NCBI GenBank assembly: GCA_008632985.1
Contig: QPGO01000015.1
Location: 311,998 to 375,997, forward strand
Direction: 5' to 3'
From: Psammoneis japonica
Taxonomy: Eukaryota
Length of the DNA: 64,000 bases
Positions 39,861-64,000 of the stretch are shown in pieces (the first letter of the stretch is position 1; each line of letters starts with the position of its first letter). The translations under genes and the position numbers were made by a program. The notes under the pieces were generated by a model. It did not search any database. It had not been told where the DNA came from and was given only the letters and a program-made list of their open reading frames with translations.

Positions 39861-40419
39861 TGGGCGAACATTCGGTCGGCCACGCGCGCACCGCGCGCTC
39901 AGTTTGCTCGAAATTCGTGGCTACGAAAAACCTACGTTGATTTTACTACCACGAGATTCTCGCCAGAGCGAGAAATCCGTTGGGCCGTCCGCGACTTGGC
40001 TCACAATTTCCAAATTCAGCCGTTTTGTTGCTGGTCGATTGTTTTTCTTTGTTGGCTTCCAAGCGGTGAGTGTTGGTCTTGTGCAGTTCCATTCTGATTG
40101 TTGTTGCGTTCGATTTCCTCATCATGCGTCTCGTGTGTCACTTCTGTTTGTGGCAACGTTGAGAGACGCTCTGGCAGGTGTCAAACGACAAATCAAAGCT
40201 CGGATTTACCGGTGGTGTCGAGTTTGAAATCGACTTGAAAAACCGCTGTCCTTTCCGTCTGGCGAGAGGCAAGAATTTCTTTGTGTCGCTGTTGCATTTG
40301 TCCGTTCTCCTCTTTGTGGAAGTCTCCCCATCTCTGTCTCTCTCTGACAAACATGCTTTGTTTTCGTCTTTCCCGCAAGTGAAGCTTGAAGGTTGTCTCG
40401 CAGGCCATTTGAATCAAGT

Positions 40420-43400: not shown

Positions 43401-44350
43401 CGAATCATTCAGTTTCTACCATGTCATCTCGTTTGCTGAACAGAGACAGAGACTACAATGGATCTTCTGGCGAGGGTGACTTGCAGCTCACCCTTTTGAC
43501 TCTGATGAAGAAGAGGAAGCAGAAGAAACCAATGCCGGTGCACCCACGCGTTTCATTGCCGCCGGTGGCTGTGGAGGTGCTGGTGACTTGGGTGGCTCTG
43601 TCATTGGGGGGGGTGCCTGATGCCATGACAGAAGATGCCGAAGCAGCTGTGAGTGAAAGCGACGATTTGGACAGCCTAGATTTAGGGGCTCCACCTGCTG
43701 CTGCGACCGGGAACTCTGAGCAAGCTGTAGAAAAGGCTGCCAAACCTTCGGAAAAAGGACATCGTGTCAAGAGATGGAAAAGTGGTACAGGCGCTAGGTT
43801 GATGACTCAAGCAGAGGCTTCAAAAACCGGATTGAGCTTCGACAAAGGGCTTGCACCGGCAGGCTATTGCATTCCGGACACGCTTCGTCTTATCTTCCTT
43901 AACATGGTTCACAACAAAAACGTGAGAAGGGGATTAAAGATGTCCAAAGCGGCGATTCGAAAGGAATTAGGCCAATGGGTAGCGTCCGAGAAATACGTCC
44001 CTTTTTGTGCGAGCAAAGGATTTGAGGCGCAACTGTTGTGCCGTGAAGAATCTCGAAGTAAAATGGCGTTGCTTCTGAAAGAAGAAGGCGTGTGTCTTGT
44101 CATCGTGGATTGCACAGACAGGGTCAAAAACGTGATGGCCAAGCATGCAGTGGCATATTTTGCGAAGCATGGTGTCCTCGTAGACACTGAGCCTTGCACT
44201 CACTTCGTCAGGCTTGAAGAGAAGGATCGAGGGACTCTTAAGCGCCGAAACAAGACGTCCATCAAGAAAGCAAATCGCATCTTCAAGAAATTATTTGACG
44301 GCGAAGAAAACAAAATATTCGAAATATACCAGATTTCAAGGAAAGTGTAA
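40420..44350 (+). pseudogene. Unknown multi-exon gene (low-complexity N-terminal region, globular C-terminal about 200 aa), TpA-eroded over its 5' three quarters
   Basis: Long ORFs 40393..40974, 40950..42845 and 43142..44350, separated by four pyrimidine-rich intron-like segments. The 631-aa ORF contains no Tyr. Confidence 0.5.
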
Positions 44351-44469
44351 GAAACGGGTAGTCAGGTTTTTCATAATCAGTTGTATAGAGCGCAATAAAA
44401 CCATTTTGTAAACCACTGCATAAAATTGTAAGGAGAGACTTCAGACAGTGGCATTCTAGACGCGGTGAC

Positions 44470-47400
44470 AGCCACCAGCCCATGAGGGCTTTACGACCAA
44501 TTCAGAACACATCAGTGGCCAATCCTTTGGCAAAATGGCAGACAAGCTGTGCAGCAGAGCTGACAGGCTCAATCTTGATCTCCAAAGCCTCAACCCCAGT
44601 GCAAAACCAGTGGCATGGAATGCCGATGGGCTTGGTTCATGGGGACAATTTAGGCATGCAAGCAAGCTGGGGGCAAGCAGCATTGTCTTCATGCACAACA
44701 GATGCTGGCAGGTTGGCAGCATTGATGGGTGAGGAATCGGTGCTGTCCTTGGCCTGCAGGAAGGCCTCGGAGTGGGCAGTTGCCTTGTTGTGAGCATCCG
44801 GTTGTGCAAAGACGTGTGTGTTAATTTCCTTCAAGATCTTGCAAAGGGGGGTGAGATCGCACATTGCTTGGGAGAGTGCGACATGCTCGGCTTCCATCCC
44901 AGAAAGTGCCGCCAGGGTCTGCAGCTTGGACACCCAGATGATGGGACATCTGCCACAATGAACAACACAACTGGTGTGTGACTTGACAGAAGTGTGGTTT
45001 TGTCCATCTTCAATGCCAAAGAGTCCTGCAAAATCAGCAACAACATGACAATCAAGCCAATGATCTGCAGTGGGTGCTCGGATGAGACCCTTGTCAGCAG
45101 TGTCCTTCAAGTGCCAAAGAATGTGCTTGATTTCAACAGCATGGGAGGCCTTGGGAGCAAAGGAGAACTGAGCAACTTGGTGGGTGGCACAGGCAATGTC
45201 CAGGTGGCTGTTGGATGCCAGATGAGTCAACATGCCGACCATGGGCCGACAGTTGCCACAAGGTTCATCGAATGATGGGCCTTCAGAACCACTGCCAGCA
45301 GGTGCAGGAAGTGTGGGAGCAGGAGCTCTGTTGCAGTTTTCTGTCTGGGCAGCATGCAGCACTTTCTCAATTGGGCCAGGTTGGGTTGGCAGAAAGCAGC
45401 CATCCTTGAGTTTCTGGATCTTCTTGATGCCAAAAAAGTTGCCAACTTTGCCTGCATCATGCAGGTTGAATGCATGGCATTGCTCATCATTGGAAACACC
45501 CAATTTGGCAATCTCAGCTTCAAGCTCTACAGATGACACTCCGGTGAACAAATCATTGTCAACACATGCCATGCACAACATGCCCTTCTTGAAACAAATG
45601 CAAGGGTCAACAGCAGACTGAATCCATCCTTGTTCAATCAATCCATGGTGCAGCTTTTCACAGAAGCACTTGGGAGACTGGCAGAGTCCATGCAGGTCTT
45701 TCAACAATTTTGGTGCCAAGTCAGCACCTGATTTCTGCTGAAAACCCTCAGGAGGCTCCACACAGACTTTCTCCTTGACATCAGCTTGGAAAAAGGTGGT
45801 GACACAGTCAATTTGATGAGTGGTCCAACCTTCTTTGAGCACCATTGTGAGGAGAAGCCAAGTTGATGACCATTGCATGACGCACAGGTCTTAAAACAAT
45901 CAACACCTTGCACATCTGCAAATCACCATAAACACAACACTGGGCTTTGTGCTTCAAGGGTGCACCATCAGAAAGTCTTTTAAGCCAGAAAGCCCATGTG
46001 CCAGGCAATGCATTCATGTCATCAGTCCTTGGCACCATTTCCCATGCACGATGGTGGAGCAGCACATTTGTCTCAATCTTCATGGACCCATTTGTTGGCC
46101 CTGTGACTGCACACAGCTTCATGCGAGGGATGGCACATCAGGGTCCTTGTGTTTCTTTGCAGTTGCACAAACCCTTTGCGCAAACCCTGGGATCATCAAA
46201 GTTTCAGGTCTGCAAATCAATGCAGGTGTCCAGAGCAGCAAGATGCACCAACTGAGCTGCAGTCCCAAGCAACTCGTCTTTTGAGTTTACTGGAGCAAAG
46301 AAGACTTTGTCCATGAACCTTTCAGACAGCAACTGACCCTTGTTTGATCAACTTGAACAGCACAGTGGAGGAGCTAACTCTGGAGAAGTGGCAGGAGGAG
46401 ATTCCGGTGTTGTTGGCATTGTTGGAGGAGCAGGTTCAGGCAGAGTGATGGCAGGTGGTGGTTTTAACTCTGGTGGCAGTTCTGCAGGAGCACAGGCAGA
46501 GGACTGGAGGGTCATCAGGTGCATTGGGAACTTCAATGTGGACATCAGGTGTGTCCGGTGGAGGCAGTTTGAAAGCAGTCCATGCCTCTGAGCATGAGTG
46601 GATTGTCTGGGATCTGCAGGGGGGCGGCAAGTCATTGATGACAGAAGTGGTTTCAGGGTCACAGAATCACAGAAGTCAAACCCGTGATGGTGGATGCTTG
46701 GAGGTGAGTTCTCACAGGTGTCATTAAAAGATGCTGGGTTGCTTGCTTCATGCACAAGGTCATCCAACATGCTGTCTGACAGTCCTTCCATGTGACTTGA
46801 TGTGGCATCATGAAACACAACTGGATTCTTGATCTCTGATGCAGTGTGCAGGCTGAAAACAACTCAAGAGCTGGCAGTTCCAAGTTAAAAGAGGACAGAG
46901 CATTGGAGAGCTTGTGGAAATTGTCAGTGTCTTTGGGGTCAACCGTCTTGACCAAGATTGGAGCTGGTTTGGCCATGGCAGTTTCCCTCTTGGCCATTGG
47001 AGCAGGAGTGAAAGATGCAGAAGCAATGACCACAGGAGGGCTGCCCACAGCATTGTCAACAGGAGCACACCACATGCCACAATGGACAAGTTCTTCATTG
47101 GCATCAGAGTCCTTGTCCATTGGTGGAGCCGTTGTTTGCTCAGGAGGACCAAATGGGACACCCACAGAAGGATCATTTGCAGCAGAGAGATTTGCTGAAG
47201 CAGTGGCACTGGAGGTGGGTGAAAATTTGCTGGTGTGTTCAGCACTTGAATGGCCTTGTCACATGCCCATCTCACTGGTTTCCTTGTTGATGCACTTGTC
47301 ACACAATTTCCAGAGCATGCCTTTGTCATCAGTGAGGGTGGGTTCCTTGTTCACGAAATGCCAGGTGGGCTTGGAAGGTTTTGGTTTTGGAGATGGTGAG

Positions 47401-48850
47401 TCCCTGTCTGTCTTCTTTGTGTTGTTCTTGGACTCATCTGCTTTCACCCTCTGCACTGCCACGTGCTCTTTCTCACATGCAGAACACACATGCTTGGTGC
47501 ATCCAACCACACCACATCCCTGCAGCAATGCTTGTCCTTGATGGAAGTGTTGCTCGACTTGGGGAGTTTAGCTGTTGAGGCAGGCCAGTCTTCATCACTG
47601 ATGAGCTTGTCATGGGTCATGGCAATCCAGCCAATGTGGCCAACAGGCCCTGAAATTGTGCAGTCAGAGTGGTTTGGCACTTTAGCCAGGTTGCAGAGAC
47701 AACACTTTTGTGTTCCATCTTCTTAACATCATCCATCTTCAAGAATGCTTGACAATTAAAGAACTTGGATGAAGTCTTGGATGCTTTGGTTAAAATGGCA
47801 GAACCTGTGTCAACCAGCAGCACACAGTCCATCTTCACAATCTTGGCCAGAGGAAGAGCTTTGGCCACAAGCTCAGTGCAATCCTTGCCAGGGTGGAACT
47901 TGAGCAACAGTGCCTTGAGCTTCTCCTTGGTGGACTTGACATCAACAAGAGCACTTGCATTGCAAGTGTCCAGAGCCATCACAAACAACACTGACCCTGG
48001 AAGATCCTTGAAGTCCTTGATGTGGTTGAACTTGACTTTGATCTTCTTGCAGGACGTTTCCGTGATTTGAGACTTGACTTGGAGTTGAGAGAGACCAACA
48101 TTGTCCTTCTTGTAATTGTCACAGCCTTTGTCACCTGAAGCAGCATTGCAAGACTTGCACTCCTTCTCAAGAAGGTTGCTGACAGAGATGGCATGAAGGG
48201 AGTCTAACAGACAAACAACCTTGCTGACAGACGTCCTCTTTCAACGGCAGAAAATTTCTTGCCCGTGCAACTGACAAGGTCTTGGATGGTTTTGACAAAG
48301 TCTTTCTTGTCCAGTTTGGTGCTTGGACCGTTGGACAGCTTGATTTGACTGATGAACTTTGAGACAGTTGCTGAAGCAAGTTGTTCACAAAGGGATTGCT
48401 TGATGGACTTGGCAGCCTTTGGATGGCAATGCTGAGAGTGTCATCAAGAAGAGACCCACCAAGGCACATGCCACAAGAGGGATGCAATCCACCATGGATG
48501 GGGGTTGGGATGGGTGGATGTGCATCGGATGCTTGCATGGCTGCAAAAGCCTCGGCAAACTTCTTGAATGTTTCCAGATCCTTTCTGGGAGCAGTGGCAT
48601 CAGAATCAGACATGATGCTGGATGAGGATTTGACACAAAAGATCAACTGCAAGGACAGGATTGCAGCACAGAAGATCACCGCAGGATGGGATGTCATCAC
48701 AATGCAGTGCAGAGGATGACAATCACAATTGACTGGAGATTGCATTTTGACCTGACGGTTTTGTGTGTCACTCTGGTTGCTGTTGCCAGAAGACTCAATG
48801 GACATTTCTTCCAGAAGCAGAGATTGATGACCGGAAGCATCATCCATGAA
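44470..48850 (-). mobile_element. Degenerate Ty1/Copia (diatom CoDi-like) retrotransposon: gag about 48613-47240, RT-RNase H about 46200-44475; protease and integrase not seen
   Basis: 'LPGTWAF.LKRLSDG...KHKAQCCV.GD', 'VCVEPPEGF', 'LHGLCQSP', 'DPCI...CVDN', 'DCHVVADFAGL', 'PIIWVSKLQT..ALS.MEAEH.ALS', 'HEDN' and terminal 'LMGW'. Gag 'PIHGG...GG' and 'WKLCDKC'. Confidence 0.9.
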
Positions 48851-50299
48851 TCACACTTGGCATTTGACTCGCGACTCTGCAGGCTGGAACTTTGTTGTGT
48901 TTGATCTTTGTTGTTTCAAGAAACACAGCCACAGTTGTCTTCAAATGTCCTCAGGCTGTCCTTGTGACATTTTTGTGTTTGACAAACATGTGTTGACTCA
49001 TCTGAACAAGAGACAAAATGCCATGGGGGCACTCCTGGTGTTGAGAAAAAGCACATGGGCTCTGTGCAACCACCATGCAGGAGCACACCATGGACAAAAT
49101 AAAAAAATGTTGCTGTGGTTCACACAAACAGTGGTTCAGTGGAAGGGATGTTTAAAATGCACCCTGAACAGAACTCAGATGCAACACAGAAACTGAGATG
49201 AGGGAAGAGGCATCTCCTCCTGGCCTGCTGTGACACACTCAATGAGCGCACCCTCACCATCATCTGACAGCAGCAACTTAAGAATTCTCTGAACATGAGC
49301 TCCTCTGAGCTGTCACTTTTGGTGACCTCTGTCCTTTGCACAGCTTTGTTGGGCTTGCCAAGCTCTCCATCTGGCTGTTGCTGATGCCTCCTTTTGCAGC
49401 ACTCCAGATTTCTTCCATGGGCCCTCTCATGACACTCCCAGCCAGCCACAAGCTTTTGTCAGCTCCTCACTCTCACCAGCTGCTGGGAACTGTGCCCTGC
49501 TCTCTGCCCACAGCTTCACTCACATGCTGCTGCAAGTGGGGCAAGCTGTCTCTTTGGAAGCTTTTTGCTGCATCACCTGTCAAACCTGGTTCAGAGGATG
49601 GACTTGCAAGTTTGAGGGCAGACTCATCATTCCATCACACACCACAAAACAGTTTGCAGCTTTGAAACAGAGCAAAAGCAGCTGCTGCTTGACAAAGCCA
49701 CAGCCTGGAAGCAAGGTGTGGAACAACAAATGGTGTGGCATGTTGATGAGCTGTTGCAGGGAGGAGGGCAGTCCTCATTGCCATCTGCTGGTCCAAAAAC
49801 CATGTCAGCAACAACCATGTTTAACTCATGGAAGAGCCTCTGTTTTAACAGTTGTCAGCTTGACACCATTTTGGACATCTCACATTTCTCTTGTGGAAGA
49901 ACTCAAGGTCAATCAAATCTTCTGTGTTTGGAGCCATGAAAGCTGGCGTGGTCTCTGTGAACAATTTGTTGGAGTCAAAGTCACACACCATGTTTGCACA
50001 GCTTGTTTGTGTGATTTCAAATGTGCATGTTGCTTGTCCTTGCAAAAGCTCATCAGCCTTGTTTCTCAAAGTTTTGCAGCAGCTCACTTGCTTGCAACTG
50101 GCAATGGGCTGCATCTGCTGGTGACAACTCAGCGTTCATGACCTTGTCACCCCCAAAGCTGCACTGACTGAAGATCTTGAACAGATTTGATTGATTGTGG
50201 ACAAAGCTCTCTCTTTGTGGCTGCTCCTGAAGCTTCTTCAATTTGTCCAAACCATGCCAATCTTTAGAAAGCTGTGATCAAGGCAATCTCAGATGGTTG

Positions 50300-50760
50300 T
50301 GACACCACAACAGTCCATGTTGAGACTTTTTTCTCTTTTTCCGTCCTGATGCATTTCCAATCTTTTGCATGTTGGGATGATGTGTTTGTGATGCTCCATG
50401 CATGAAGTTGTCTTGTGCCTCAAGTTCTGCACCTCCACCGGCTGCTGCTGCAGGCACCACCACCAAGGGCTGTTTGCTCTGCAGCTTTGTTGCCTGGAAG
50501 AAGCTTGGCATGACCTTCCTCCCACTTGTCCTTTAGATGCATCATCTCAAACATGGTCCAGGTGCTGCTTTCAAGCAGCTGGTGCACAGGCTCCTGATGC
50601 TTCTCCAGACAAAGGGCAAGAATGTTTTACCCTGCCACAACATGGTTTGCACATTGCACAGGAACAACAGGTGCTCTTCACATGCACCTGCAGAAAAGTG
50701 CTGAAAACTCAGTTCAAGCACAGGACTGTCAGCATTGGCTGGAGGGTCCACGTTAGAGTC
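50300..50760 (-). mobile_element. Possible Ty3/Gypsy gag N-terminal fragment
   Basis: 'DPPANADSPVLELSFQHFSAGACEEHLLFLCNVQTMLWQG' resembles the diatom Gypsy gag pattern 'DP..ADSP.YEL....F..G..EE.L.F'; recognised from memory. Confidence 0.45.
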
Positions 50761-53700
50761 ATTTAGGAGTGTTAGTTTTTCAAACTACATACTTGTCTGC
50801 TGCTGCACCTGAGCTCAAATGTCAAACTCACCTTTTGACAGTGCCTTCTCTTCTCCAGATGTTGCAAAGGAATTGGCAGCTCACTCCACTTCTTCATGAT
50901 TGGTCAGTTCATCAACTGTGGTGTTGAAACCTGGCACACTTGCATGAATGTGTGCAAAAGAAGAGAGTTGGCAGACAAGAATCCTGCAGCTTCAGAGGTC
51001 AATTCATGCCAAAAAAACACCAAGAAAAGACAAGGATTCTGTGATGAAGGTGAGTGTTGAGTGAGTGCTTGTCAATTGTTGATCAGTTGATGCCTGCTGG
51101 TGATGATGAGCCACCTGAGTTCAAACTGCCAGCCAAGAAGCAGTGGAAAAGCAGCCCAAGTGCATCTCATTTCCAGTTGCAACAACACAAGTTGTGTGCA
51201 CCTGGCATGGTCAGGGGGTGGTGTCCCTGACCACCATGGCCCAAAGCAGTGAAATCATGCTTCACAAGAAGCTGCAAAGTGGTTTGATGTGACAAGCTGC
51301 TTTGGTGCCACCTTGGGGTCAGACAAAAGAAAATTCAAAGAAAGGACAATGGACTCTGCAGTGGGCACACATTTGGGCTGTGAACAGAAAAAGTGGAATC
51401 GCAAATGTGCGGCAAGGACAGCTCACACGAAAATGCATTTGAGTGTGCAGCAAAAGCAAGAACTGTCAGCAGCTGGAGTCAGTGTGTCAGTTGGTCCCAG
51501 GCCCTCAAATTGCTCAAACTGTGGAACTGGGGTGTCAGACACACAAGAAGCCAGCTGTGGCCATGGCAACTGCATGTCTGTGAGATGAGTGAGAAGAGTC
51601 ATCTCATGGACTTGATCTGCTGGTCCAAGATGTGGATCTCTGTGCTCTTGGTGTGCCAACACCCCCCATCCTGTTCCCTGATCAAAGCATGTTGCAGACT
51701 CCAAAGAAAAAGCAATGACATGAAGGCTGAACTTGCAAGTGTTCAAACTAAAAAAATCAGCAAGCTCATGGGTGCTGCTGTTCTTGAGCAAATCTTGAGA
51801 ATGTTCCAACAGCTGTGCTTGCAGCCAGCAGCCTTGATGTTCATGTTTGGCCGTTGCCTGGGAAGTCCACTGCCAATGTCAAGGCACATGTGTCATTTTG
51901 CCCTGCCATGACACAGCGGGAGCCAGCCTGCACTGCACAGACACAATGACTGGGTGTGCACTTCACACACTGGCAAAAAAGTGCAGAACATTCAGCTTGT
52001 GCATTGGGCTGTCAGCATCAGCTCTGGCAAGTTCCTGAGCTCACATGTCAAGCACTCTCTTTTTGACAATGCCTTCTTCTCCAGACATTTCAGCAGAGTT
52101 CATGTGGCTCAACCTGCTCATTCATGATTGGTTGATTTGTTGTTGGCATGGCTGACATCACAACCTTGGGCACTTGTGGGAGCAACACCACTGTGCCTGG
52201 TGCACTGTCAGGTGATGACATGGGGAAACAGCAGAGGGTGCCAAAGCTGCATTTTGTGAAAGTTGTTGTGAGGCTGGTTTGTCTCTAAAAAATGGAGTGG
52301 TGTGAGCAGGAAATGTGGAAATTCTCTTGTTGATTTGCACCATGGGCTGCAATGAAGCTGTGTTGATTTGGCCCACAGCTGGCTTCATTCAGAATTTGCA
52401 CAAGTTTTGAAAAAAACCAGATGCATCATCACATGTGCTTGCCAAATAAATTTCAACAATGAGCCAACTTTTGTCCATTTGCAAAACAACAAAGAGTCCA
52501 CTGATGATGATGATCATGGCCATGCATCATGTTCAGCTTGGCAACTCTGGACATGTCATCTGCAGCCGGTCAAATGCCAGCTGTTGGCATTTCCTGGGAA
52601 GTTGTGCCTTGTCCAACCACAATCAGTGCATTTTTGGCAAAAAACAGTGGTTTGCTTGTTGAATGTGACAGCTGTGGTAAATTCAAAAATTGGCATTTTG
52701 AATTTGAAGGTTGATCAGCACAGTTTGCATGAAGGTGTTGCAGCCCTGGTGGGCAGTGGATGAGTTCCAAGTGTTTGGGGGAACTCAAGAGAGGCATTCA
52801 AAACAACATGAACAAAGCATGAGCTGTTTAAAAATTTGCCAAGAGCTGATTGTTCATCCTTGAATCAGCTGCATTTAAGTTTCTTGGCTCTGACATTGTC
52901 TGCATGTCATCATGTGTGCACATGTGCATGCTGTGCCTGCATTGCTGTGCCTGCATGTGTCATCATCTTTGTGTCCTCAATGGCCTGAGTTGTTGATCCA
53001 CAGGCCCCCCTGTGCTGCCATGATGCATGCTTGCACAGTGCAGCAAACTAAAAGGAGAGAAATGATTGGTCCCAGCAACTCTGCCATTTGCATGTCCTTT
53101 CTACAAATCATTCCACGTGCACAAGCAAAGCACAAAACTCAGCATGCTGCATGTGGCTGGTGTTGACTGCACACACTGACCACAACAGCTGAAAACTGGA
53201 GCATGCTCTGGAGTGGTCAACAAGAAACAACAATTTGTTCCCTGTCCCATGAGACATGCTGCTTGGCTCCCTTTTTTGGGAGATGACAAACCCAATGTGC
53301 AAGCACACCTTTTCGGAGAGCAATGATCTCACCACCCAAGAGGATTGGCAGAGCTGAGATTTCAAGGATGACCATGAAGAAATTTGGGAGGGCAAGCCAT
53401 TTGGTGGAACCATTTGGTCTTGACAAAAGAGAGCCACCCATCTTTCTCACTTTTGGTGTGCACAGGACCAGCATGCAGCACAGTCACTGACTTTCCTGTG
53501 CATGCCAAAGAAACAACACCATTGCAGGCATGAGCTGAGGAAGGGTGGCTTTTAAATGATGACAAATGATGGCAAGTGCAAAGGAGGAAACCTGTTGCAG
53601 CATTGCTTGGTTGCAGAGAAGGAAGACAAGTTGCTTGACAATGTTTTTTTTTTCATTTTTGAGCATCTTGAGCACATCAAGTGAAGAGGTGCCTTTGGCC

Positions 53701-54149
53701 AAGAAAGGGATGGAGGAGGAGAGGAAAGAGTTCAGAGCCTGCATGGCTGCAAAGGAGGGGGACTCAAGAGCTCAGAGACTGCCTGGCTGTGAGGGAGAAA
53801 AACATGAAGCTGTCTGCAATCTTGAAGCCACTGAGCTGCAGATCCATGTCATCCCTGTTCAAAGATGCTGTGCAAGCAGCAGCAATGAAAGGGACCAAGA
53901 ATGCCTGTTTGTCACAGATTTTCATGCAAAAAGGCATGATCAGACTGCCCAACATGCTGCTCCACACTTGTGCCTTGGACCCAGCCTTGGCTGGCTGTGT
54001 TTTGGGCACCATGATTGACAAAGCATCTTTTTCACAAATCCATCTGTTGTGCCAAAGAAAGGCATTTACACTGTACAAAGCTGCAAGGACTGCAGGCCAA
54101 CATCAGCTGGTGGAAGCAAGGGCAGTGCACATCCCCATTGAGGATCCTT

Positions 54150-56900
54150 GCCTGATCCAAAGACATGATGTGCCAGTTGGTTTGTGGCAAACTGTGCTGC
54201 ACCACCCCACTGAGACCTTTTTGGTGCTCGGTTGTTGTTGACGTTGTGTGTTTCCCACCAACCTCATGTGCACTCCAGGAGTTGACTGGTGTCATGGAGC
54301 AGGTGCCAGCACACATTGACTTCTGACAACCCAACAAACTCATCTGTGGCACATTGCAACTGCTGATTTTTCTTGTGGTTGTTGAAGAGTGGGAGTCCCC
54401 TTGGGTTTTGCAATGCTGTTCTTAACGCAGATTCTTGTTTTTTCCCTGAATCATCCCCCCAATCCTCACCTGGGTGGACAACTCTCTTGCCTGGTGCTAA
54501 AGGCTGTTGTCTAAATTCCCATGCATTGTTTGTCATGCAGTTTCATCACCTTTGGCACCCATTCCTCTGTCCAACTTGATGAGTGCCCCCCTCCCCACAC
54601 CCATCCAGCAGTTGACCCCATCTCTCAGCTCCTGCCCTCACAGGCTCTTGGTCTGCAGCACCCAGTTGCTGGGGTCTAGGTTGCCTTGGATGGCATCATT
54701 CTCAGGGGGCTGGGTGGCCTTGCCTGCAGGGGGGGGTTGATTGGGCTCACCCTGTCCTTGCAATGCTGCGGTGGGTTCATTCTGACATGTTGAGTTTGCC
54801 AGTTGGACTTGAACTTGAAGGTTCCTGATGGTGGCTTCCATCTCAGCTGTCTGTGTTTGCATCTGTTCTGGTTCATCTGCAGTTAAGGTGGGTGTGCTTT
54901 GCGTTGATTGAAGCTGGTGAATTAAGTTGATGAGGCCTGGTTCCAATGGGCAATTTGAGCCCATTGTGGCCACAGATTTGTTGGTGACATCCGGGCAGAA
55001 ATCACATTGGCTTCAACACATCTTGGGGGCTGGTTGTTCAGGCAGCTTGGGTTTGTTGCTTGCCTCAGGCTTGGATCTGTCTGCGAAGATTGTGAATTAA
55101 AGATCCTTGTCTCCTTCAAGCAACTCAGCTGGGGTGAGGTCTTCCTCAGTTGCTGCTGCTGCGCCATTGGAAGGATCAAAGATGAGAGAGTCTGCCAGCT
55201 TGTTGGCAGCAGTCATGAAGTTCAGATGGTGTTGCTCATCTGAGTGGCGGTGCTTTAAGAGTGGCAGGAGACTGGTGATTCTTCCTCTTGCTTTGTTGGA
55301 CAGCTTGGGCAAAAAGTTGAATTTTGTGCATCCGGCATTTTCTTGTGCTTGTTGATGACTGGGAAAAGTTTCTCTCCTGGGTGCTTGTTGGAATCCATCT
55401 GCGTTGTTGCCTCACACAAGGATTTTCTGTTTGGCTGACTTTCAGATTTGCAGCCAAGTTCAAAGATCTGGTCCATTGATTCCTGGCAGCAGTCATTGCT
55501 TCTCATCATCCTGACAAAAGTGTCTTGCCCAGCTCGCAGCATCTGTGCACCCCATTTTGACCAGTCATTGAAGACGTTTCTACAGCTTGGAATGAAATGG
55601 CAGCATTGGCCTGAAGGGAATCTATCTTTTGCTTTTGAGGAGCAAACATGCTGCAGAGCCTTCCTGCCTTGGTGTTCCTTTTTGGAATTGGCTTCAGCTT
55701 TGGCTTCGAAAGCACAGACTTTGTTTGTCTTCATGTCCCGCCTCTGGCCTGGTTCCTGCACATTGACATTTCTCCATCTAAAGCCTGCCTCCTGGCCCAC
55801 GGCTTCCTGGAAAACAACCTTGTGGGCTTCACGGTTGTGGTCCTCAAAAGAAAAAAGCAGCCAACCCAGCTTGGAGAGCTCCTGTGGAAGTGGCACTGAG
55901 CCAGGGTACAGTCTGACATCGTTGTCCTGGAAGAAGTGGTCAACCTCCTCCATGATGGTGTTGTGGGACTTGTTGCTTCTAATGAAGTTGTTGTGAAAAG
56001 CCTCCACCTCCTTTTGGGTGACACAGCACTTGTGAAAGTGCTCCCTCATCTGTGCATCATTCTTGGGTGGCTCTTGTGGTTTTGTCAGTGGCTTCTTGTT
56101 CGAGCCCTCTCTTCATGGGCATGGCATGTGTGATGTGTCCACTTCCTGGAGCAGTTCTCTGCCAGGACATCCTGATGGCATTTTCTAGCCTCGCTCCTGT
56201 CCTTCTTGGCAATGAACTTGATGATGAGCATGCACCTGTGTCAGTGGGTCCTGGGTGCAGCCTGAACCGCCAGCATGAGTTGCTGAACCATCTCCTGGGG
56301 GGTGGGTTTGAGGTGGAGGTTTCTGTGTTCCAAGAGCTCTCATTGTCCTTTGGAGCACCAGTCACTGGAGCAGCATCAGAGTTGTTTCCAGATGGGCCAT
56401 GGTCTTCTTGAGAGTTTTCATTTTGGGCCAGGGTGGAATTGTTTTGTTCGGGGTTGTCCTCCTCACCCTCATTGTGATTGGATTGGTTCACTCTTGGGTC
56501 AGATGCCAGCAGGAAGCAGGGGTTGTATCCTGGATCACCAGGGAACAGCTGTGAGCTGTGGCCTCGGGTTCCAATGGAGCGGGTGGGCATTGTGGCTTGT
56601 GATGTCATAAATCCCCTCTGCCTCCATGTCTGTGGTGATGTCCTGAATGGTTGGATCAACCATGACGAGTTTGAAACTGCCTGGCTTGCTTTTGAGGAGA
56701 TTTCTGAGTGAGATTGTAGCTGTTGGTGGCAGCTGATGAGGACAGTGATTCCATGTCATCATCTTGGTTGGTTTGAGTTTGTGAAATCGTCATTCCATCC
56801 CCCCCTGCATCATCAATGGACTGTTTGGATTGTTCAACTCCAATCGGTGTCCAAGCAACCACCCAATTGTCCATCAGCCCAATCAGATGGGAGTCAGTTC
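54150..56900 (-). mobile_element. Degenerate non-LTR retrotransposon (Ambal-like): ORF1 about 56900-54900 plus the start of the ORF2 AP-endonuclease about 54540-54150; RT not seen
   Basis: APE N-terminus 'WGDD..KKQESALR.ALQNPRGLP...KN...GLSEVNVCWH'. ORF1 'LGWLLFS...FRWRNV...SS...FPSG...FIP...LR..Q..F...KLF'. Confidence 0.7.
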
Positions 56901-57139
56901 TCGATTTTTTTTGTCCTTGTTTGTTTGAAGACCCTTCAGTTGCCGGAATTTCACAGTCTCTGACCATGGTGCTGCACACATTTCCCCATCCTGGTCGCAG
57001 TTGGTCCTGTGGCACTGCTGGCATTGATTCCATGTGTCAGATTTGAGTGGCTGTGACTTCCCTGCACACCTCTGCACAAGGGATGCACCACAGCATGTTT
57101 GTCCACAGTTTCTGCCAGTTCACAATGTCACAGATCTTA

Positions 57140-57967
57140 GAGAAGTGCAATGGGCTGCATCACATCACTGCAGCCACCATGTCCCTCTCCAGCTTCCATG
57201 CTGCACCCCGTCAAGGCTGTTTGGATTGCACCAAACATGTCTGTGGATTCTTGTGCAAGATTCAACATGGTGCCCTGCAATTGCATGCCAAGGAACACGA
57301 CTGTTTGGACCTTTCTAAGCCTGTGCATGACTGGGCTCAAACCACACATGGTGATGCGGAGCAACTGATTCCCAAAGACATGCGCAGCCCTCTTGGCAAC
57401 TTTGTCACCATGACCCATTGTGTTGATGCAAGCTTGCTCCATTGCATGCTCACTGGATGCTCTGTCACAGGCATCATTTTTCATTTCCTCAACAAGTTTC
57501 CAGCTGATTGGTTCTTCAAGAAACAAGCTGCAGTTGAGACTGCAACTCATGGATCTGAGTTGTTTGTTGCTGCTGGGATGTGTGTTGAACAACAGATCAT
57601 TGATCTGTGCATCACATTGCATCACCTTGTTGTCCCAATCCACAACACATGTTGCATGTTTGGGGACAACAAGTCAGTTGTGGACAGTGCCACCATCCCC
57701 CACTCCAAGTTACACAAGCGACACACCGCCCTCTTGTTCCATCATGTGCGTGAGGCAATTGCCTCTGGTTTCCTCAAGTTCGACTTCCTTGAAGGTTCCT
57801 GCAACCCCGCTGACATCCTCAGCAAACACTGGGGTTGCTCCCAGGGTTGGAACCTCCTCCATCCTCTCATGTTTTGGAGCTTTGATCCTGAGGCCTTTGG
57901 TCAATCTGACTTTGAATCTGTTGCTGCTGTGGACTCCTCAAGCAAACTGAGGAGTGACAGGATTTGA
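57140..57967 (+). mobile_element. Degenerate Ty1/Copia (CoDi-like, second family): RT C-terminus and RNase H, then a PPT-like GAGGAG and probable LTR start TG at 57955
   Basis: 'MSLSSFHAAPRQG.LD', 'THCVDASLLHCMLTGCSVTGI', 'KKQAAVETATHGSE', 'MFGDNKSVVDSATIPHSKLHKRH.AL.FHHVREAIA' and 'NPADILSKHWG'. Confidence 0.92.
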
Positions 57968-58227
57968 ACAAGATTTTAGTTTGTTGCACAAAAATGTGTG
58001 TGCTTTCAGTTCTGCACATGACACAAATGCAGTTTGCTTTTGAGCCACTTGGCTCATGAGAATTGTGACAGTGGCACCCACATCATGACACCCCAGTCTT
58101 TGGGCTCCCACAACACATTGTCTGCATGAGCACTCATCTGCTGTTTAGACAGCAGCAAGGAGTCATTGTTTTCTTCCACCCAGTCATCTTGTTTTCTGTG
58201 AACTCACATTCATGCTCACAAGGACTG

Positions 58228-58575
58228 CAACAGAGGCAACACTTTTACCCTGAAGAGCAAAGGACTTGATTGAACAGCAAAGAAAAGAGGTGGCATTGAA
58301 GACTGACTGGTGTGGATGGAAGCAGTCATCCAGAGTCATGACAAGCTGAGAGTCAGTGGCTTCATGCAGAAACAATGCCAGATCTTGCCCAGAAAAGCCA
58401 ACAGGCACAGCAAATGAATGATCAATGGACACTGGAGGATGACTCATGCTTGCGCTAGAAAGGGATCCAACAACAGAGGCAGTGCTTTCACCCTGAAGAG
58501 TGAGGGAAAAAGAAGCAGTGTTGAAGAGAACCCACTGGCATGGACAGAAGCAGTCTAGAGATGTGACATGCAGAT
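58228..58575. repeat. Diverged direct repeat of about 110 bp (about 58228-58345 and 58470-58575)
   Basis: Shared 'caacagaggca..ctt.accctgaagag', 'ttgaaga..actgg..tgga..gaagcagtc'. Confidence 0.7.
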
Positions 58576-58639
58576 TGTCAACAGTTTCTTCTGAGTCCTG
58601 CAGAACTTGAGCTGGAACCTGTGCAAAAAGGTTTCTGAG

Positions 58640-59920
58640 ATGACAGAAATTTGAGAGAAACAACAACCAGTGTGTGAGCCACAAGGCTTTGACACACACA
58701 ATTTTCTGCTGAAGAATGTTGCTTGTCATGCTGCAGTTGGCAAATGTGAACAAAATGGGCTTGTTGGAGCCAACATGACACCATCTGAGAAGGGCAACAT
58801 CAGTGCAAGAAGTTGTGCACAAACCCGCATGGAGACCAGAATGTGCAGCTGACATCAAAAAGTGCAATTGCAAAAAGAACAGCTGCATGTTTGCCAAATG
58901 CACTGCACTCCAGTTCACCCTTCACCTGTGTGCTTTGTGGGGGGGGGGCACACAACAACAGCCAGGATGCCATCAAGACAAAATTGTTGTGCTGCCTGGA
59001 GGTGTTGACAATGCCTCCACCAGCTGAGTGGTGCATGAGCAGCTGCACTGCCCTGGCAAGACATGTGCAGAAACATCCACTGCCCATCACTTCCACTGGC
59101 CTGGCATCATGAGTGCTGCAGTGCATTCTGCATGTGTCAAGTGCAAACAATGCCAGGAGATGAAATGCCAGACACAGCATTGCAAGAAGCTGTCAGAAGT
59201 CCAAAAAAACAGCCAAAAGAATCCTGCAGGAGACCTTGTGTGTGGATGTGACATGGGGTCCCACCAAATTGAGTGATTTGGAAAAGACACTCTGCAACAG
59301 TGAACAGCAACTGTGACTGCCCAGGCACCAGGAAGATTCAAGTGCCAAGATTGTGGAAGTGTCTGCCAAACATGATGCAGGTGTCACAGAGTCACCAGGG
59401 CAAATGTCATGAAGCAAACCTCCCTGGCCATGTGCAGGTGCATCCAAATCCACAGGCAAGCACTTCTGCAAAAATGCACACAACAGACACTTGGAAATGT
59501 GGTGTGCTCATTTTCAGTGTGGGACATGGAGTTGGACAAGGGGAAGGGCATCCTTTCAGCCATGGCTTCTGTCATGCATGCTGCATCACATGCCACTGCA
59601 TGGGCAAATCCCAAACAATTGGCCTTTGACATGATGCAGCTCTTCTGTCCATTGCCCTTTGTGCCAAGTGGTGGCACACCTGATGCAGAAAGCTGAAGCT
59701 GATGCACTCAAATGACAAATGCAAAAGCATGAAACAAAAGGAGTGCCAACACACCACAGGGCAGTTGGCACTTGTTGTCAAACAAGGGCAAAAAGACAAA
59801 ACACAGAACTGGTTGTCATGCAGGTCCTGCCAGTGTTGTCAGCATGAGTGACAGCAACACTTTGCATCCACAAGATGGTGTGCTGACACAGACATGTGCA
59901 ATCTGTGGCAGATTGTGCAC
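58640..59920 (+). mobile_element. Degenerate Ty3/Gypsy RNase H end and integrase
   Basis: Zn-binding region 'HEQLHCPGKTCAETSTAHHFHWPG...CKQCQ'. Core end 'QQTLGNVVCSF...GILSAMASVMHAASHAT..ANPKQLAF'. GPY/F-like 'HAGPASVV'. Confidence 0.8.
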
Positions 59921-59934
59921 TGCCATGCCACATC

Positions 59935-60670
59935 ACATTTTTCTTGATGCAACAATGCAGATGAGCACTGATGGTTGATGTGCAGGAGTCATTGGCTCTC
60001 CCAAATTTGCATGAGAGGCCAATGGATGAACATGATGACAGTGTGGTGGCAGAACTGTCAGCACTTTTCTGCTGCCATGCAACAGCACAATGTTGTCATT
60101 GACATGACAACACAGATGAGTGCCAATGGCTGGTGCATCAGAATGGCCCATTTTGCTCAAACTGCAGGAGCTCATCATTTTGTTCAAACTTGCATGAGAC
60201 TGGCACCACTTTCATGATGGTGTTGCAAGCACTTTTCTGCAGCCTTGTTGCAGGGTGTCTTTCTTCACAACACAGATGAGTGCTGACGGCTGGCACAAGA
60301 AGAGAACAACCACTTTTGCTCAAATTGTGGGAGTCACTGGCTTGTTCAAATTTGAAGGAGAGACCAATGGTGCCAACACAATGACAACATGGTGGTGGCA
60401 TGTCAACACTTTCCCACAGCTGTGCCACAACAGCATGTCTTTCATGATGTGACAAGACTGCAGATGAGCATTGATGGCTGGTGTGAAGGAGAGCAGCCTG
60501 TTTTGCTCAAACTGCAGGAGTTCATCACATTGTTGTTCAAGCTTGCATGAGACAGCCAACAGCACTTTTTTGTGATGATGATGTGGCAGAGTTGTCAGCA
60601 CTTTCTTGCAACCTTGCCACAGTGTGTCTTTCTTGACAAGACAGCACAAATGATTGTTGATGAACATGTC
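59935..60670. repeat. Degenerate tandem array of about 4.5 units of 155-188 bp with an ABAB higher-order structure
   Basis: Anchor 'cagatgag' at 59958, 60113, 60273 and 60461 (variant at 60647). Shared 'ttttgctcaaactgcaggag' and 'tgtcagcacttt'. Confidence 0.8.
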
Positions 60671-61229
60671 ATGTTCTGGCACACATCAGCAATTTGGAGA
60701 TGCACTGGGCAGCAACAATGTTCCTGTCATTGGCACACTGCCAAGGTGCACATGAAATGGTGGTTTGTGAGCTTGGCTGCTGCACCACCCCCACATGAGT
60801 GCCTCAGAACTGCCAAGCAAGTGTTGATCTTCAGATGGTCCTGATGCATGATTTGGTCATTTTGGAAGACTGGCAGAGATTGTGCTTTGAATCCATGGGG
60901 CACCCTGCCTAAAAACAACTTCCATGTTGGCAACATCTGCTTTTTCAATTGCCACAAAACAAGTCTCAGCATGTGGTCCAAACACTCTGATGGCAGCACA
61001 TGCACACTTGTGGGACATTGTCACATGCAGAGACAATGCTGCAGTTGCCATGAAGTGGTGGGAACTTCAAATGGTGGCATCTGCTGTTGCACCATTGTAG
61101 AGTGCAGCATCTTCACTCCTCATGTCTCTTCATGATGTCTGCATGGTGCATCACAGAATTGTGCATGGCGCATGCATGCATGGAGCCCCACATGGGGTTG
61201 CACTTGCACACCAAAATGAGCTCTCTAAG

Positions 61230-62130
61230 CTTTCCATGGCCATGACATCTTTTCCTAGAGAATGTTGGGTGAGTCATTGCATGAGCCCATTTGCAGGACC
61301 TGCGTGTCTTGCACCACCTTCCTCATGGGCAGACAAGCATGCACATCTTTTGGCTGCCACCATCAACAAAGTCAAATGTGGCAGCATCCAGCATTGAGGA
61401 GATCCGATGATGTCACCCACCACACAAAGCCTTCAAGCTCATGCAGCATGTCCTGGATGTGAGGAATTGGGTGGGTCAATCTTTTGACCCCATTGTTGAG
61501 CTCCCAGAAATCACCAAGAAACCATGCCAGCACAAAATCTTGCTTTGGCAAGGAAAATGATGGAGCTGCACACTGCAGACACAGTTGGTTGTGCATCCAG
61601 TGATGAGAATTTCACAAATGCGCTCCACTTCCTTTCTCTTGGCATCGCTTCACATCCCCTTGGGGCTTTGCAAGGATGTCTGTTGTCAGCAACATGGCTC
61701 AGCATGATCCTCTTTAAGCTGGGTGTGGTGAGGACCCCCTTTCCATTCACCTGACATGCCATCAAACAAGGACTCACACTTTTTCAACAAACTGAGCAGC
61801 TTCACTTTCCAGTTGCTGTCAAGTCCTGTTGCTCCCTGCATTGTGTCCTCAAGGCATGCTGGCACATGCTTGGCATCTGAGATCTTTAAAATTCCATTGC
61901 TTTCTGAAAACAGTGGCTCTGGATCTTGAAAACAGATGGAGGTTTCTGCAGTGGCTTCTGTGCATTTAAATGGCATCTTGTTGTTAACCTTTGGCCACTC
62001 TAGCATGTCTCATCCAACAACCATGTCAGGTTTGCCCAATGATCAGCTGTGTGTGTGGTGAACTTCACACACAAGTTCTGCAGTTGTGGACAATTCTGGC
62101 AACTGGAAATTGGTGGTGTGAGAACTGTGT
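61230..62130 (-). mobile_element. Degenerate Ty3/Gypsy protease-RT fragment
   Basis: 'LLSLLKKCESLFDGMSGEWKG.PHH.QLK', 'KEVERICE', 'AAPSFSLPK', 'DFWELN..VKR..HPIPHIQDMLHELEGF', 'SDLLNAGCCHI' and 'MG.CN'. Confidence 0.88.
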
Positions 62131-62439
62131 GCCATCTTAACTCTTTGTTTGCCAGAATAGATTAGATTGGAATTTTTTGCATGGTGTGCAGATGCACATG
62201 TTTTTCATGATGTGCACCACCACACACCACAAGGGTGGTGATGCCAACAGCCACAACAGCGTTGTTGCATTTGCCATTGTTGCAGAGCCACCATGGCAGG
62301 TGATGTCCTCCACCATTTTCCAGTGGCATTTTTTTATTTCAATGTTGTGGTTGCTGTCATTGCCAATTTTTCCTCTGCAACAATTTGACTGCATTCATGT
62401 GGTTGCTGTTGTTGTTGCTGTGTGAGACATTCCAACTGT

Positions 62440-62955
62440 GAGCTGTGCTTGGAATTGTGGAAGGGGGGCAAAAGAGATGCAAGCAAGCTTTTGTTTCATG
62501 GTTAAAGCAAGACATGTTGTTGTCTCTTGCATTGTCATTCAGTGCTCAACACATTTCATGTGATGCCTTGGCATCACACACTGATGCATGTTTTCTGGCT
62601 ACACTCATTTGTTGCATCAGAACAAATGGAGAGCACTGTTGGTGGCATGGCAGTGAACTGTCACAGCAATGCTTTTTGTTCAGATTCAGGTGCAAGTGCT
62701 GCAGGAATGGCAGGATGCATGCCAGTTTAAAGAAGTCGCTCTTCCTTTAAAAAAATCATTTGGAAACTGTTGTTGCGCGTGATGCTGTTGGATTTCAAGT
62801 GTGGATGGGGGGCAAAAGCAACAGATGCAGGCAAGCTTTTGTCATTTTTCAAAGTGAGTTTACATTGTCTTTTCTTTGTTCAACAGATTCCATGCATCAC
62901 ATGCCAACACACATCATTTTTTACACCTCGGCACTGCACACTGATGCATGTGGTC
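62440..62955. repeat. Diverged direct repeat (about 62440-62600 and 62785-62955) in unidentified degenerate DNA
   Basis: Shared 'tgtgga.ggggggcaaaag...agatgca.gcaagcttttgt' and 'cacactgatgcatgt'. Confidence 0.7.
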
Positions 62956-64000
62956 AAATGTCTTCATTGCCTTCTTGTTGTGCACAAGGTCTTCTTCTTG
63001 CACAGGCCTCTTCCTCCCTTTCTTTGGTTGACAGGTCTTTCCATGTGTGAGACCATGTTTGCTGAAAGAGCACCACTGCAAGGCACACACTCAATTAAGC
63101 CACAGCACAGAGTGGCGCATGTTGTGTGACAGACAATGCACGTGCACATTGCCAATTTTAAACTGGCAGTTGCTGCACTTTGTTGCACCCAACATGTGTT
63201 TTAGATGTGTTGATGGCAACAATCTTAAATTGCACTGGCAGTCTTCTGTTCAGCTTTTCTTTTCTCATTGGCTGAGGGAGCCTTGTCTGCAGTGCCTGTG
63301 GACAGACATCTCCTTCCCCATGACTTCCTTGTCAAGATGCCTCTCAGAGGATCAGGGTGCAGGACATGTTCTTTGTGCATTGCATGTGAGCTTGTGCAAG
63401 TGAACAAGAGACAAAAAGGCATTCAGTGGACAAACAGCAAAGGGCTGGTCTTCTGCAAATGGATGCAACTAAGATCAGTGGAAGCTCACCTCATTTTCTT
63501 TTGTTGGTCAGTGCAAGAAATGACGGGTGAAACAGCAGCTGCAATTTCTGATGGCACTGGAGGTCAAGCAGTGGCTGGGGGAGCCATGCAGGACTCCAAA
63601 TCAGCATTCTCCATGGCAGTGTCAAGGGAGCTGAAGGTGAGCATAAAGACATGCTTGCCATTGTCCATGTCCATCATGCCCATGCCACAAACAACCGTGA
63701 TTTTGCAATGAAAAGTGGAAAACAGCAGCACAAAAAGCAAGGGTTAGCTGAGGGAATGTGAAGTGCAAAAAAGGACAATCCAGCGTAACAGAACAACAGC
63801 GTTGTGATGCACACTTGCCCATTGTTTGACAATCCACCAGATTCCATCCTGCAAATGACAACACCATTCTGTCAATGATGGTGGCTGGTTGCACCTGTCA
63901 TGATGCAAGAAATGCTGATGCAACAGCCGGTGAGTCACAAAGTGAAAACAAGATGGCAACACAACAACACACCAAGTCAAGCCATCACAATGCACCTCGC

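Follow-up and report, generated by a model that had tools for sequence, protein, structure and literature searches.

The stretch of DNA considered here is a 64-kb window of contig QPGO01000015.1 (64,000 nucleotides, with a G+C content of ~48%; all positions are those of this window), in which eukaryotic host genes with long unbroken exons, coding for PRP1/PRP6, Sec1, a sulfatase, EXS, a bromodomain-PHD protein and Integrator subunit 2, lie beside a cluster of transposable element (TE) relics at 44470-64000 from which the dinucleotide TpA has almost vanished. Because all relatives that carry an organism name among the best 120 of the PRP6 frame are diatoms (they include Seminavis, Cyclotella, Thalassiosira, Skeletonema and Cylindrotheca; the best named match is Seminavis at 71%, the best match overall stands at 74%), the host can be placed, by the sequence of its genes, among the diatoms (stramenopiles), without a near sequenced relative in the searched collection. 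The cluster, in turn, reads as a graveyard of long terminal repeat (LTR) retrotransposon relics, two of which are identified as copia elements and the rest of which are unclassifiable. What erased TpA from this graveyard? We consider it probable that two separate, context-specific transition processes acted in place on double-stranded genomic DNA: the decay of CpG, and a TpA hypermutation of the kind described in a recent preprint on the alga Bigelowiella natans, in whose mutation-accumulation lines integrated viral DNA is reported to undergo hypermutation of TpA to TpG or CpA only (Mettrop et al., bioRxiv 10.64898/2026.01.13.699255).

The reference for composition was the genic part of the window at 10-40 kb, with observed/expected (o/e) ratios of 0.57 for TpA, 0.99 for CpG, 1.10 for TpG and 1.13 for CpA. 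Across 44470-64000 the same ratios are 0.07, 0.10, 1.80 and 1.94, and the counts set against the genic per-base expectation are 95 vs 732 for TpA, 116 vs 1144 for CpG, 2347 vs 1325 for TpG and 2203 vs 1400 for CpA, which confirms the near-absence of TpA that the original prediction had claimed for this region. None of the other 12 dinucleotides shifts comparably between relics and genic DNA (ApA stands at 1.14 vs 1.13, and the largest shift is that of TpC, 0.96 vs 1.20), and the summed o/e of the pyrimidine-purine steps (YpR) is kept at 3.91 in the relics vs 3.79 in genic DNA, which fits the expectation if the changes were transitions within YpR only. When the DNA is cut into 1-kb segments, rho(TA) ranges from 0.00 to 0.13 in the relics (n=19) vs 0.39 to 0.71 in genic DNA (n=29; Mann-Whitney p=7e-9), so that 19 of 19 relic segments, at 0.13 or less, fall under the cut-off of 0.43 used in the B. 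natans preprint. The longest TpA-free runs begin at 6996 (2793 bp) and at 58557 (2354 bp), vs a genic maximum of 285 bp, and the six-frame translations carry the same mark, with Tyr at 0.09% in the relics vs 2.12% in genic DNA, Cys at 6.5 vs 3.5, His at 5.5 vs 3.1 and Arg at 3.8 vs 9.2. The observed footprint is real and lies far beyond chance. It is also even between the strands, TpG and CpA counts being balanced in nine of the ten 2-kb bins of the cluster.

Host genes beside the relics are spared: genic DNA is normal in composition, and the compositional border and the point where copia homology stops are no more than ~20 bp apart. This left border is sharp, since the homology ends at 44475 and normal TpA density is back at 44457. 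Copia 1 stops at 44475, no LTR having been found beside its 3' end, so that the truncation of the element coincides precisely with the change in composition. Outside the coordinates of the original prediction, two more regions are affected (Table 1), the isolated island at 6996-9788 and the unclassified block at 39951-43460; between the latter and the cluster there remains ~0.8 kb of normal composition (43680-44460).

Table 1. Features of the window; positions are inclusive, and the strand is given where it applies
Feature	Position	Strand	Basis and remarks
Transposon-relic cluster	44470..64000		TpA o/e 0.07, CpG o/e 0.10; continues to the window edge, so its true end may lie beyond
Copia 1 relic (reverse transcriptase (RT)/RNase H part of pol)	44475..46374	-	RVT_2 E 9.6e-17; tblastn extent; open frame 44640-45890
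Copia 2 relic (C-terminal pol, RNase H region)	57056..57964	+	Homologues of 50-58% identity, E 2e-82, many with RVT_2; tblastn extent
Possible gypsy-type RT fragment (HPIP, GCCHI)	61375..61611	-	Motifs only
Internal tandem repeats in relic	59930..60663	+	Purine/pyrimidine-recoded self-BLAST, 244 bits; clock-free test of in-place decay
Direct repeats ~1.2 kb apart	50623..52142 (50623-50914 and 51894-52142)	+	Recoded self-BLAST
Short tandem repeat in relic	58201..58588	+	Recoded self-BLAST
Unclassified TpA-poor block	39951..43460		TpA o/e 0.12 (26 vs 132 expected), CpG o/e 0.74 (171 vs 206)
Isolated unclassified relic island between host genes	6996..9788		TpA 0 vs 105 expected; CpG 27 vs 164

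How much of this DNA can still be recognised? All 11 peptide motifs quoted in the original prediction were found at the elements and on the strands it had given, and its two copia elements hold up as well. The homologues of Copia 1 reach 49% identity (E 2e-107), and the named ones are diatoms; Copia 2 is not recognised by Pfam directly, and its identity rests on its homologues. For the fragments called gypsy, the motifs are present, and support from Pfam and PDB is lacking: there was no Pfam match at E<=0.05 and no retroelement match among PDB sequences, heavy mutation being able to mask homology. The Pfam scan took in 136 open reading frame (ORF) pieces of at least 80 aa (hand-picked from 158) together with 150 of the 151 pieces of 48-79 aa, and among these 286 pieces there was one real TE family, RVT_2, the remainder being weak chance matches. 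As standard hidden Markov model searches fail on mutated relics to this extent, TE content is likely under-annotated in genomes of this kind. Neither ordinary nor purine/pyrimidine-recoded self-BLAST found LTR pairs, and the elements are truncated fragments; ordinary self-BLAST saw one weak repeat only, the recoding being required to see the others. Outside the cluster, the 19 ORF pieces of the island at 6996-9788 gave no Pfam match. A 634-aa frame in the TpA-poor block (40941-42842) had no match at E<=0.001 among 1.84 billion representatives and none in the Atlas or Pfam; it is probably open only through the erasure of TAA and TAG stops.

The direction of change follows from comparison with relatives. 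At the protein level, the alignments took in 42 of the best 120 homologues of Copia 1 and 46 of the best 120 of Copia 2, and a column was taken as conserved when at least 60% of at least 20 homologues agreed. Copia 1 keeps 126 of 194 such columns and none of its 10 conserved Tyr, five having become Cys and five His; none of nine conserved Arg survives either (three to His, two each to Trp and Cys, one each to Gln and Asp). Of its 68 changes, 31 can be accounted for by a single transition at TpA or CpG; for eight a different single transition suffices, for 14 one transversion does, and the remaining 15 require at least two changes. Copia 2 keeps 139 of 210 conserved columns, again 0/10 Tyr (to Cys five times, His three times, and Ser and Phe once each) and 3/15 Arg. 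The changed Arg columns end in Trp, Cys, His or Gln in 8/9 cases in Copia 1 and 10/12 in Copia 2. The claim that Tyr gave way to His and Cys is thus correct and polarised in two copia relics on opposite strands. Since the aligned homologues contain 2.3-5.5% Tyr, a lack of Tyr is not native to the copia families.

For the comparison of nucleotides, codons were threaded for the Copia 2 of the window and for an environmental set of 80 metagenome loci of the same family, namely a locus designated L052 and 79 other relatives; a site was polarised when at least 70% of at least 25 relatives agreed, both for the site and for its neighbour. Relative to the consensus of the 79, Copia 2 has lost all eight conserved TpA (A>G three times, T>C four times, one transversion). 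Transitions took 7/16 of the TpA site slots vs 3/76 in other A/T contexts (Fisher p=1.2e-4), the latter made up of A>G at 3/49 ApA, CpA and GpA sites and T>C at 0/27 TpC, TpG and TpT sites; in the 79 leave-one-out controls, pooled, transitions at TpA came to 1.6% and 3.0%. The test proposed with the original prediction, a concentration of A>G and T>C at TpA over other A contexts, therefore speaks for it. One of the agents it had put forward fares differently. Error-prone gap filling of the Pol-eta type (WA>WG) predicts loss of ApA too, and it misfits because ApA is untouched, both in the o/e ratios given above and in the polarised sites, where A>G at ApA came to 1/12 and 2/26, the former in the Copia 2 of the window. 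Conserved CpG, on the other hand, was lost at six of seven sites, always by C>T or G>A.

Is the loss of TpA merely an aspect of CpG decay? The two come apart in both directions. In the TpA-poor block of the window, TpA stands at 0.12 while CpG stands at 0.74. Among the 80 environmental loci, 79 have a TpA o/e of 0.33-0.94, and L052 alone (2766 bp) falls to 0.02, with a CpG o/e of 0.44 (one of the two locus search patterns demanded Tyr or Phe, so that mutated copies are under-sampled). L052 has lost 18 of 18 conserved TpA, 13 of them by transition, vs A>G at 4/101 and T>C at 1/54 outside TpA (p=2e-7), and shows a transition at only 1/9 conserved CpG sites. A second environmental case comes from the 240 listed copia protein homologues, of which only one, P0308, has Tyr below 1% (0.24%, with Arg at 5.0%); it keeps 15 of 17 conserved Arg and one of 16 conserved Tyr, the others having become His (five), Cys (four), Phe (four), Gln (one) and Val (one). 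Conversely, a CpG o/e of 0.25 or less (0.04-0.25) goes with a TpA o/e of at least 0.47 in 9/80 loci, and CpG decay alone is therefore common; these nine (L026, L005, L012, L016, L006, L039, L079, L080 and L042) are useful negative controls. Two loci considered as intermediates, L024 and L030 (TpA o/e 0.33 and 0.44), were rejected, the contexts of their surviving TpA being like those of the controls (p=0.18 and 0.29). The loss of TpA can thus be told apart from CpG decay, is the rarer of the two, and runs ahead of CpG loss in three cases (the block, L052 and P0308). As the original prediction had it, deamination of 5-methylcytosine (5mC) would account for the CpG loss and cannot remove TpA. Within the island at 6996-9788, the CpG-poor part (~7065-9520) is narrower than the TpA-free part, and TpA is already sparse from ~6640, a hint that the decay of methylated CpG falls a few hundred bp short of the reach of the TpA process.

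Did these changes arise on the DNA after integration? Were each copy of a duplicated sequence to lose its TpA and CpG on its own, many aligned YpR sites would be expected to show TG on one side and CA on the other. The recoded self-BLAST returned repeats of 244, 182, 105 and 99.6 bits, the best reversed-sequence control reaching 85.7, and such discordant sites number 14/66 in the pair at 59930-60663, 6/19 and 9/28 at 50623-52142 and 10/25 at 58201-58588. In the first pair, all 28 transitions in shared YpR sites form CA/TG doublets, with no single-step YpR difference, and the 14/66 doublets compare with ~1.5/66 when roughly estimated from the 15% background transition frequency of that pair. 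A further comparison is offered by the sample in which the window sequence was found, in three runs, all from one sample that is probably the source of the assembly; contigs were taken from one of them, run X1. Among the differences listed between these contigs and the block at 39951-43460, 17 sites make up 13 events, 11 of them in YpR: four CA/TG doublets, three TA vs TG/CA and four CG vs TG/CA, beside one other transition and one transversion. The genic stretch next to the block has, among the differences listed, 10 transitions and 12 transversions. After the window and the X1 contigs had parted, the decay of YpR sites went on, whether these contigs represent the other haplotype or a near-identical copy. 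The CA/TG doublets that set apart repeat copies, and the sample contigs from the window, place the change on the DNA itself, in situ. The two strands are affected about equally, the polarised changes on the sense strand comprising 17 A>G vs 20 T>C (p=0.74).

The sample also holds close relatives of the second copia element. Because the summed X1 depth rises to ~34,000 at 57343-57999, vs 110-340 elsewhere, the Copia 2 family is high-copy in the sample, less-mutated copies included; in a related copy there, compared by eye, the His-Cys-Val of the window is still His-Tyr-Val, and two CGs are retained. Apart from this segment, most relics look single-copy at a likeness of at least 90% in the X1 contigs. 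The X1 contigs also skip 285 bp (42630-42916) and 1297 bp (50688-51986) between internal direct repeats, structural variants within mutated DNA.

The 95 TpA that survive in the cluster are not a random remainder. TTAA occurs 32 times, vs 45.5 expected from the composition of the control copia loci and 30 from genic composition, CTAA/TTAG 27 times vs 79, CTAG six times vs 39 and ATAT not once vs 82. A model in which the strands are hit independently and survival is set by the base 3' of the A only (ten symmetric classes, four parameters) fits these counts with a deviance of 1.59 on 6 degrees of freedom (p=0.95), vs 157.7 on 9 degrees of freedom for uniform survival. Modelled survival falls from 0.84 with A as the 3' base through 0.39 (G) and 0.14 (C) to 0.06 (T), and the corresponding efficiency at 5'-T-A-N-3', in relative units, is 2.8 for T, 2.0 for C, 0.9 for G and 0.2 for A.

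Several observations weigh against the interpretation built up so far, or at least limit it. One 2-kb bin, 54470-56469, is strand-biased (plus strand TG 249, CA 154), the sole such bin and an unexplained one; its TG excess coincides with an AT skew of ~-0.21. TTAA is absent from the most mutated 2793 bp, where ~4 would be expected, and its absence from heavily mutated stretches means that TAA is slow to mutate, not immune. The repeat search was transition-blind and the alignment transition-tolerant, which biases both toward transition differences, although the excess of doublets stays far beyond the rough estimate given earlier; in the pair at 59930-60663 ordinary divergence is mixed in, with non-YpR transitions at 25/162 sites and 20 transversions. 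The X1 contigs exclude a polishing artefact, yet they are not independent biology, coming from one sample, and what distinguishes them from the window may reflect two haplotypes or two very similar copies. Polarity was read from relatives of 45-58% protein identity, not from intact family copies of this genome, and from few sites, eight conserved TpA for the window and 18 for L052; among the 80 loci there was no DNA-level relative of more than 71% identity for either copia or for L052. Finally, Tyr>Phe transversions affect 5/18 conserved TpA sites in L052 and 4/16 conserved Tyr columns in P0308, both with long open frames, so that selection may contribute in these two, for example if an element evolves to avoid TpA.

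With these points in mind, the two processes can be envisaged as follows. Repeat methylation in diatoms is reported to be mainly at CpG (PMC5124317), and deamination of 5mC in such repeats would drive CpG to TpG and CpA. A faster, independent hypermutation of TpA to TpG and CpA would be restricted to TE-like or orphan DNA and would hit the strands one at a time at 5'-T-A-N-3', so that TTAA would live longest and ATAT would be the first to go. The specificity, polarity, post-integration action, use of both strands, independence of CpG and occurrence in unrelated environmental contigs of the TpA process are all observed; the process may also be enzymatic and targeted as a defence, its targets perhaps chosen via heterochromatin, small RNA or repeat sensing. 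That it is repeat-targeted, as the original prediction had it, holds in the sense of a restriction to TE-like or orphan DNA; a trigger by duplication, in the sense of fungal repeat-induced point mutation (RIP), is not shown. Likewise, its second mutator of mobile DNA stands as TpA-directed and loses the epithet 'adenine-directed', double-stranded sequence being unable to tell such a mutator from a thymine-directed one.

Which base, then, is attacked? Adenine deamination on DNA by an enzyme like ADAT2/3 or TadA has, in our view, an even chance of being the chemistry at work. TadA/ADAT tRNA deaminases act in a U-A-C context, and its match with T-A-Y would, if the idea is true, point to a deaminase recruited from tRNA editing into genome defence. 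Thymine oxidation must be set beside it: a TET/JBP dioxygenase would make 5-hydroxymethyluracil (5hmU) at TpA in silenced TEs, and mispairing or faulty repair would fix T>C, a difference in the chemical step only. Double-stranded sequence merges A>G on one strand with T>C on the other, and the motif fit is equally readable, by symmetry, as an effect of the base 5' of T (A > G > C >> T), which suits thymine chemistry as well. Against this route, 5hmU is only weakly mutagenic, and we know of no 5hmU in diatoms. In dinoflagellates, a TET/JBP homologue is reported to make 5hmU that is enriched in TEs and silencing, and older work cited there gives it a preference for T in TA and TC (PMC11572971). 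It shares with the process described here its targeting to TEs and the reported T-in-TA preference; the differences are that it is described as an epigenetic mark, not a mutator, and that it also favours TC (PMC11572971), which is unaffected here (T>C at TpC 0/7 in the window and 0/14 in L052). On balance we regard the thymine route as unlikely, and the rest of the probability falls to some other chemistry.

Could the changes instead have been made on RNA or complementary DNA (cDNA) during retrotransposition, by ADAR-, ADAT- or APOBEC-like editing, and been inherited at integration, with no process on genomic DNA at all? The identified elements are retrotransposons, ADAR and ADAT favour a U 5' of the edited A (bioRxiv 10.64898/2026.01.13.699255), and L052 has gained more TG than CA on its sense strand (23.3 vs 11.3 per kb). 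Editing of a single strand, however, would not leave changes balanced between the strands (17 vs 20), nor would it set tandem copies inside one relic, or contigs from a haplotype or close copy, apart by CA/TG doublets; moreover, the block at 39951-43460 and the island at 6996-9788 are without retroelement homology in the searches above. ADAR hyper-editing and fungal mRNA editing by TAD2/TAD3 do resemble the present case in turning A into G with U/T preferred 5', but they act on RNA and on a single strand, whereas here both DNA strands are equal and T and C are the best 3' bases and A the worst. The 3' preference of ADAR, as of TAD2/TAD3, is for G next to the edited A, opposite to the order T > C > G >> A found here, and ADARs are, to our knowledge, confined to animals. 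We therefore hold an origin on RNA or cDNA to be very improbable. More improbable still is the view that nothing mutated and that the absence of TpA and Tyr is native to the families, or an adaptation of theirs. It draws on the long open frames and conservative Tyr>Phe changes of L052 and P0308, and on the fact that loss of TAA and TAG keeps frames open whatever their function; but the 42 and 46 aligned homologues are as rich in Tyr as stated above, only 1/240 of those listed falls below 1%, and the TpA of 79/80 loci lies at 0.33-0.94, so that a Tyr-free ancestry, which would have undone the original prediction, finds no support. Besides, one of the sample's related copies still carries Tyr at a position that is Cys in the window, the catalytic YVDD of the RT reads CVDN, which would inactivate the enzyme, and stops and broken frames interrupt the relics (102 stops were counted over 10 kb in a single frame). 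Least credible of all is the reading that modified DNA gave rise to errors in sequencing, base-calling or polishing, for which it may be said that the window may come from a long-read assembly and that the sequence was seen in one sample only. The independently built X1 contigs (their platform is not on record) have a summed depth above 100 in 30 of 30 bins and reproduce the relic sequence over 1092 bp with no difference, 1348 bp with two and 2397 bp with 11, and the same signature recurs in unrelated collections, in L052 and P0308.

Among known systems, the closest in kind is that of B. natans, and the statement in the original prediction that no described system matches is outdated, the 2026 preprint having measured the same spectrum. 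[quoted passage not shown] Both cases share A>G and T>C only at TpA, foreign or mobile DNA as the target, and clustered TpA loss with gain of CpA and TpG. They differ in the host, a chlorarachniophyte (rhizarian) there and a diatom here, and in the degree and kind of target, since a region from a nucleocytoplasmic large DNA virus has a TpA o/e of 0.45 there, whereas LTR-retrotransposon relics near saturation stand at 0.07 here. CpG decay is superimposed in the diatom, and the flank dependence (TAY > TAG >> TAA) and the independent-strand kinetics were derived here; the main text of the preprint makes no mention of a flank effect, which its figures and supplements, outside this comparison, may contain. 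The de novo rate aside, the window agrees with the B. natans process in spectrum, footprint and target class. We regard the diatom case as a further instance of this newly described TpA process, in which the diatom host, the independence of CpG, the motif and the strand kinetics are new, and literature searches returned no report of TpA-specific hypermutation in diatoms.

Fungal RIP offers an instructive mirror image. It too works through dinucleotide-specific transitions at the DNA level that disable transposons in place with sharp borders, but it turns CpA into TpA and so makes TpA and stops, whereas the process described here destroys TpA and removes TAA and TAG; the RIP signature, an excess of TpA with depletion of CpA and TpG, is accordingly reversed, with TpA at 0.07 and CpA/TpG at 1.8-1.9. 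Deamination of 5mC, common in the environmental copia loci (9/80), supplies the half of the pattern that leads from CpG to TpG and CpA, and cannot remove TpA.

What would such a process mean? If true, a targeted adenine- or thymine-directed DNA mutator would add, next to RIP and APOBEC, a second class of genome defence by mutation, one reported so far in a single 2026 preprint from one rhizarian alga. The saturated footprint in a diatom, together with the single environmental examples, suggests a wide spread among ecologically dominant algae. Tentatively, and as a real if not the favoured possibility, diatoms and chlorarachniophytes, and with them perhaps much of the SAR group (stramenopiles, alveolates and Rhizaria), might share an enzymatic TpA-editing defence on silenced mobile or foreign DNA that works strand by strand, prefers T-A-Y, and is independent of CpG decay and outpaces it. 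The motif, the strand independence and the separation from CpG make the question of the enzyme more tractable, and they yield predictions for biochemical assays and for a re-analysis of the B. natans mutation lists. There is also a practical side to the erasure of TAA and TAG, which leaves the relics with long spurious frames. Gene callers will list these as orphan proteins, the 634-aa frame described above being an example. In ordinary genic DNA of the window, at 38160-38161, an adjacent double difference was seen, with TA in the window vs CG in the other contig of the sample.

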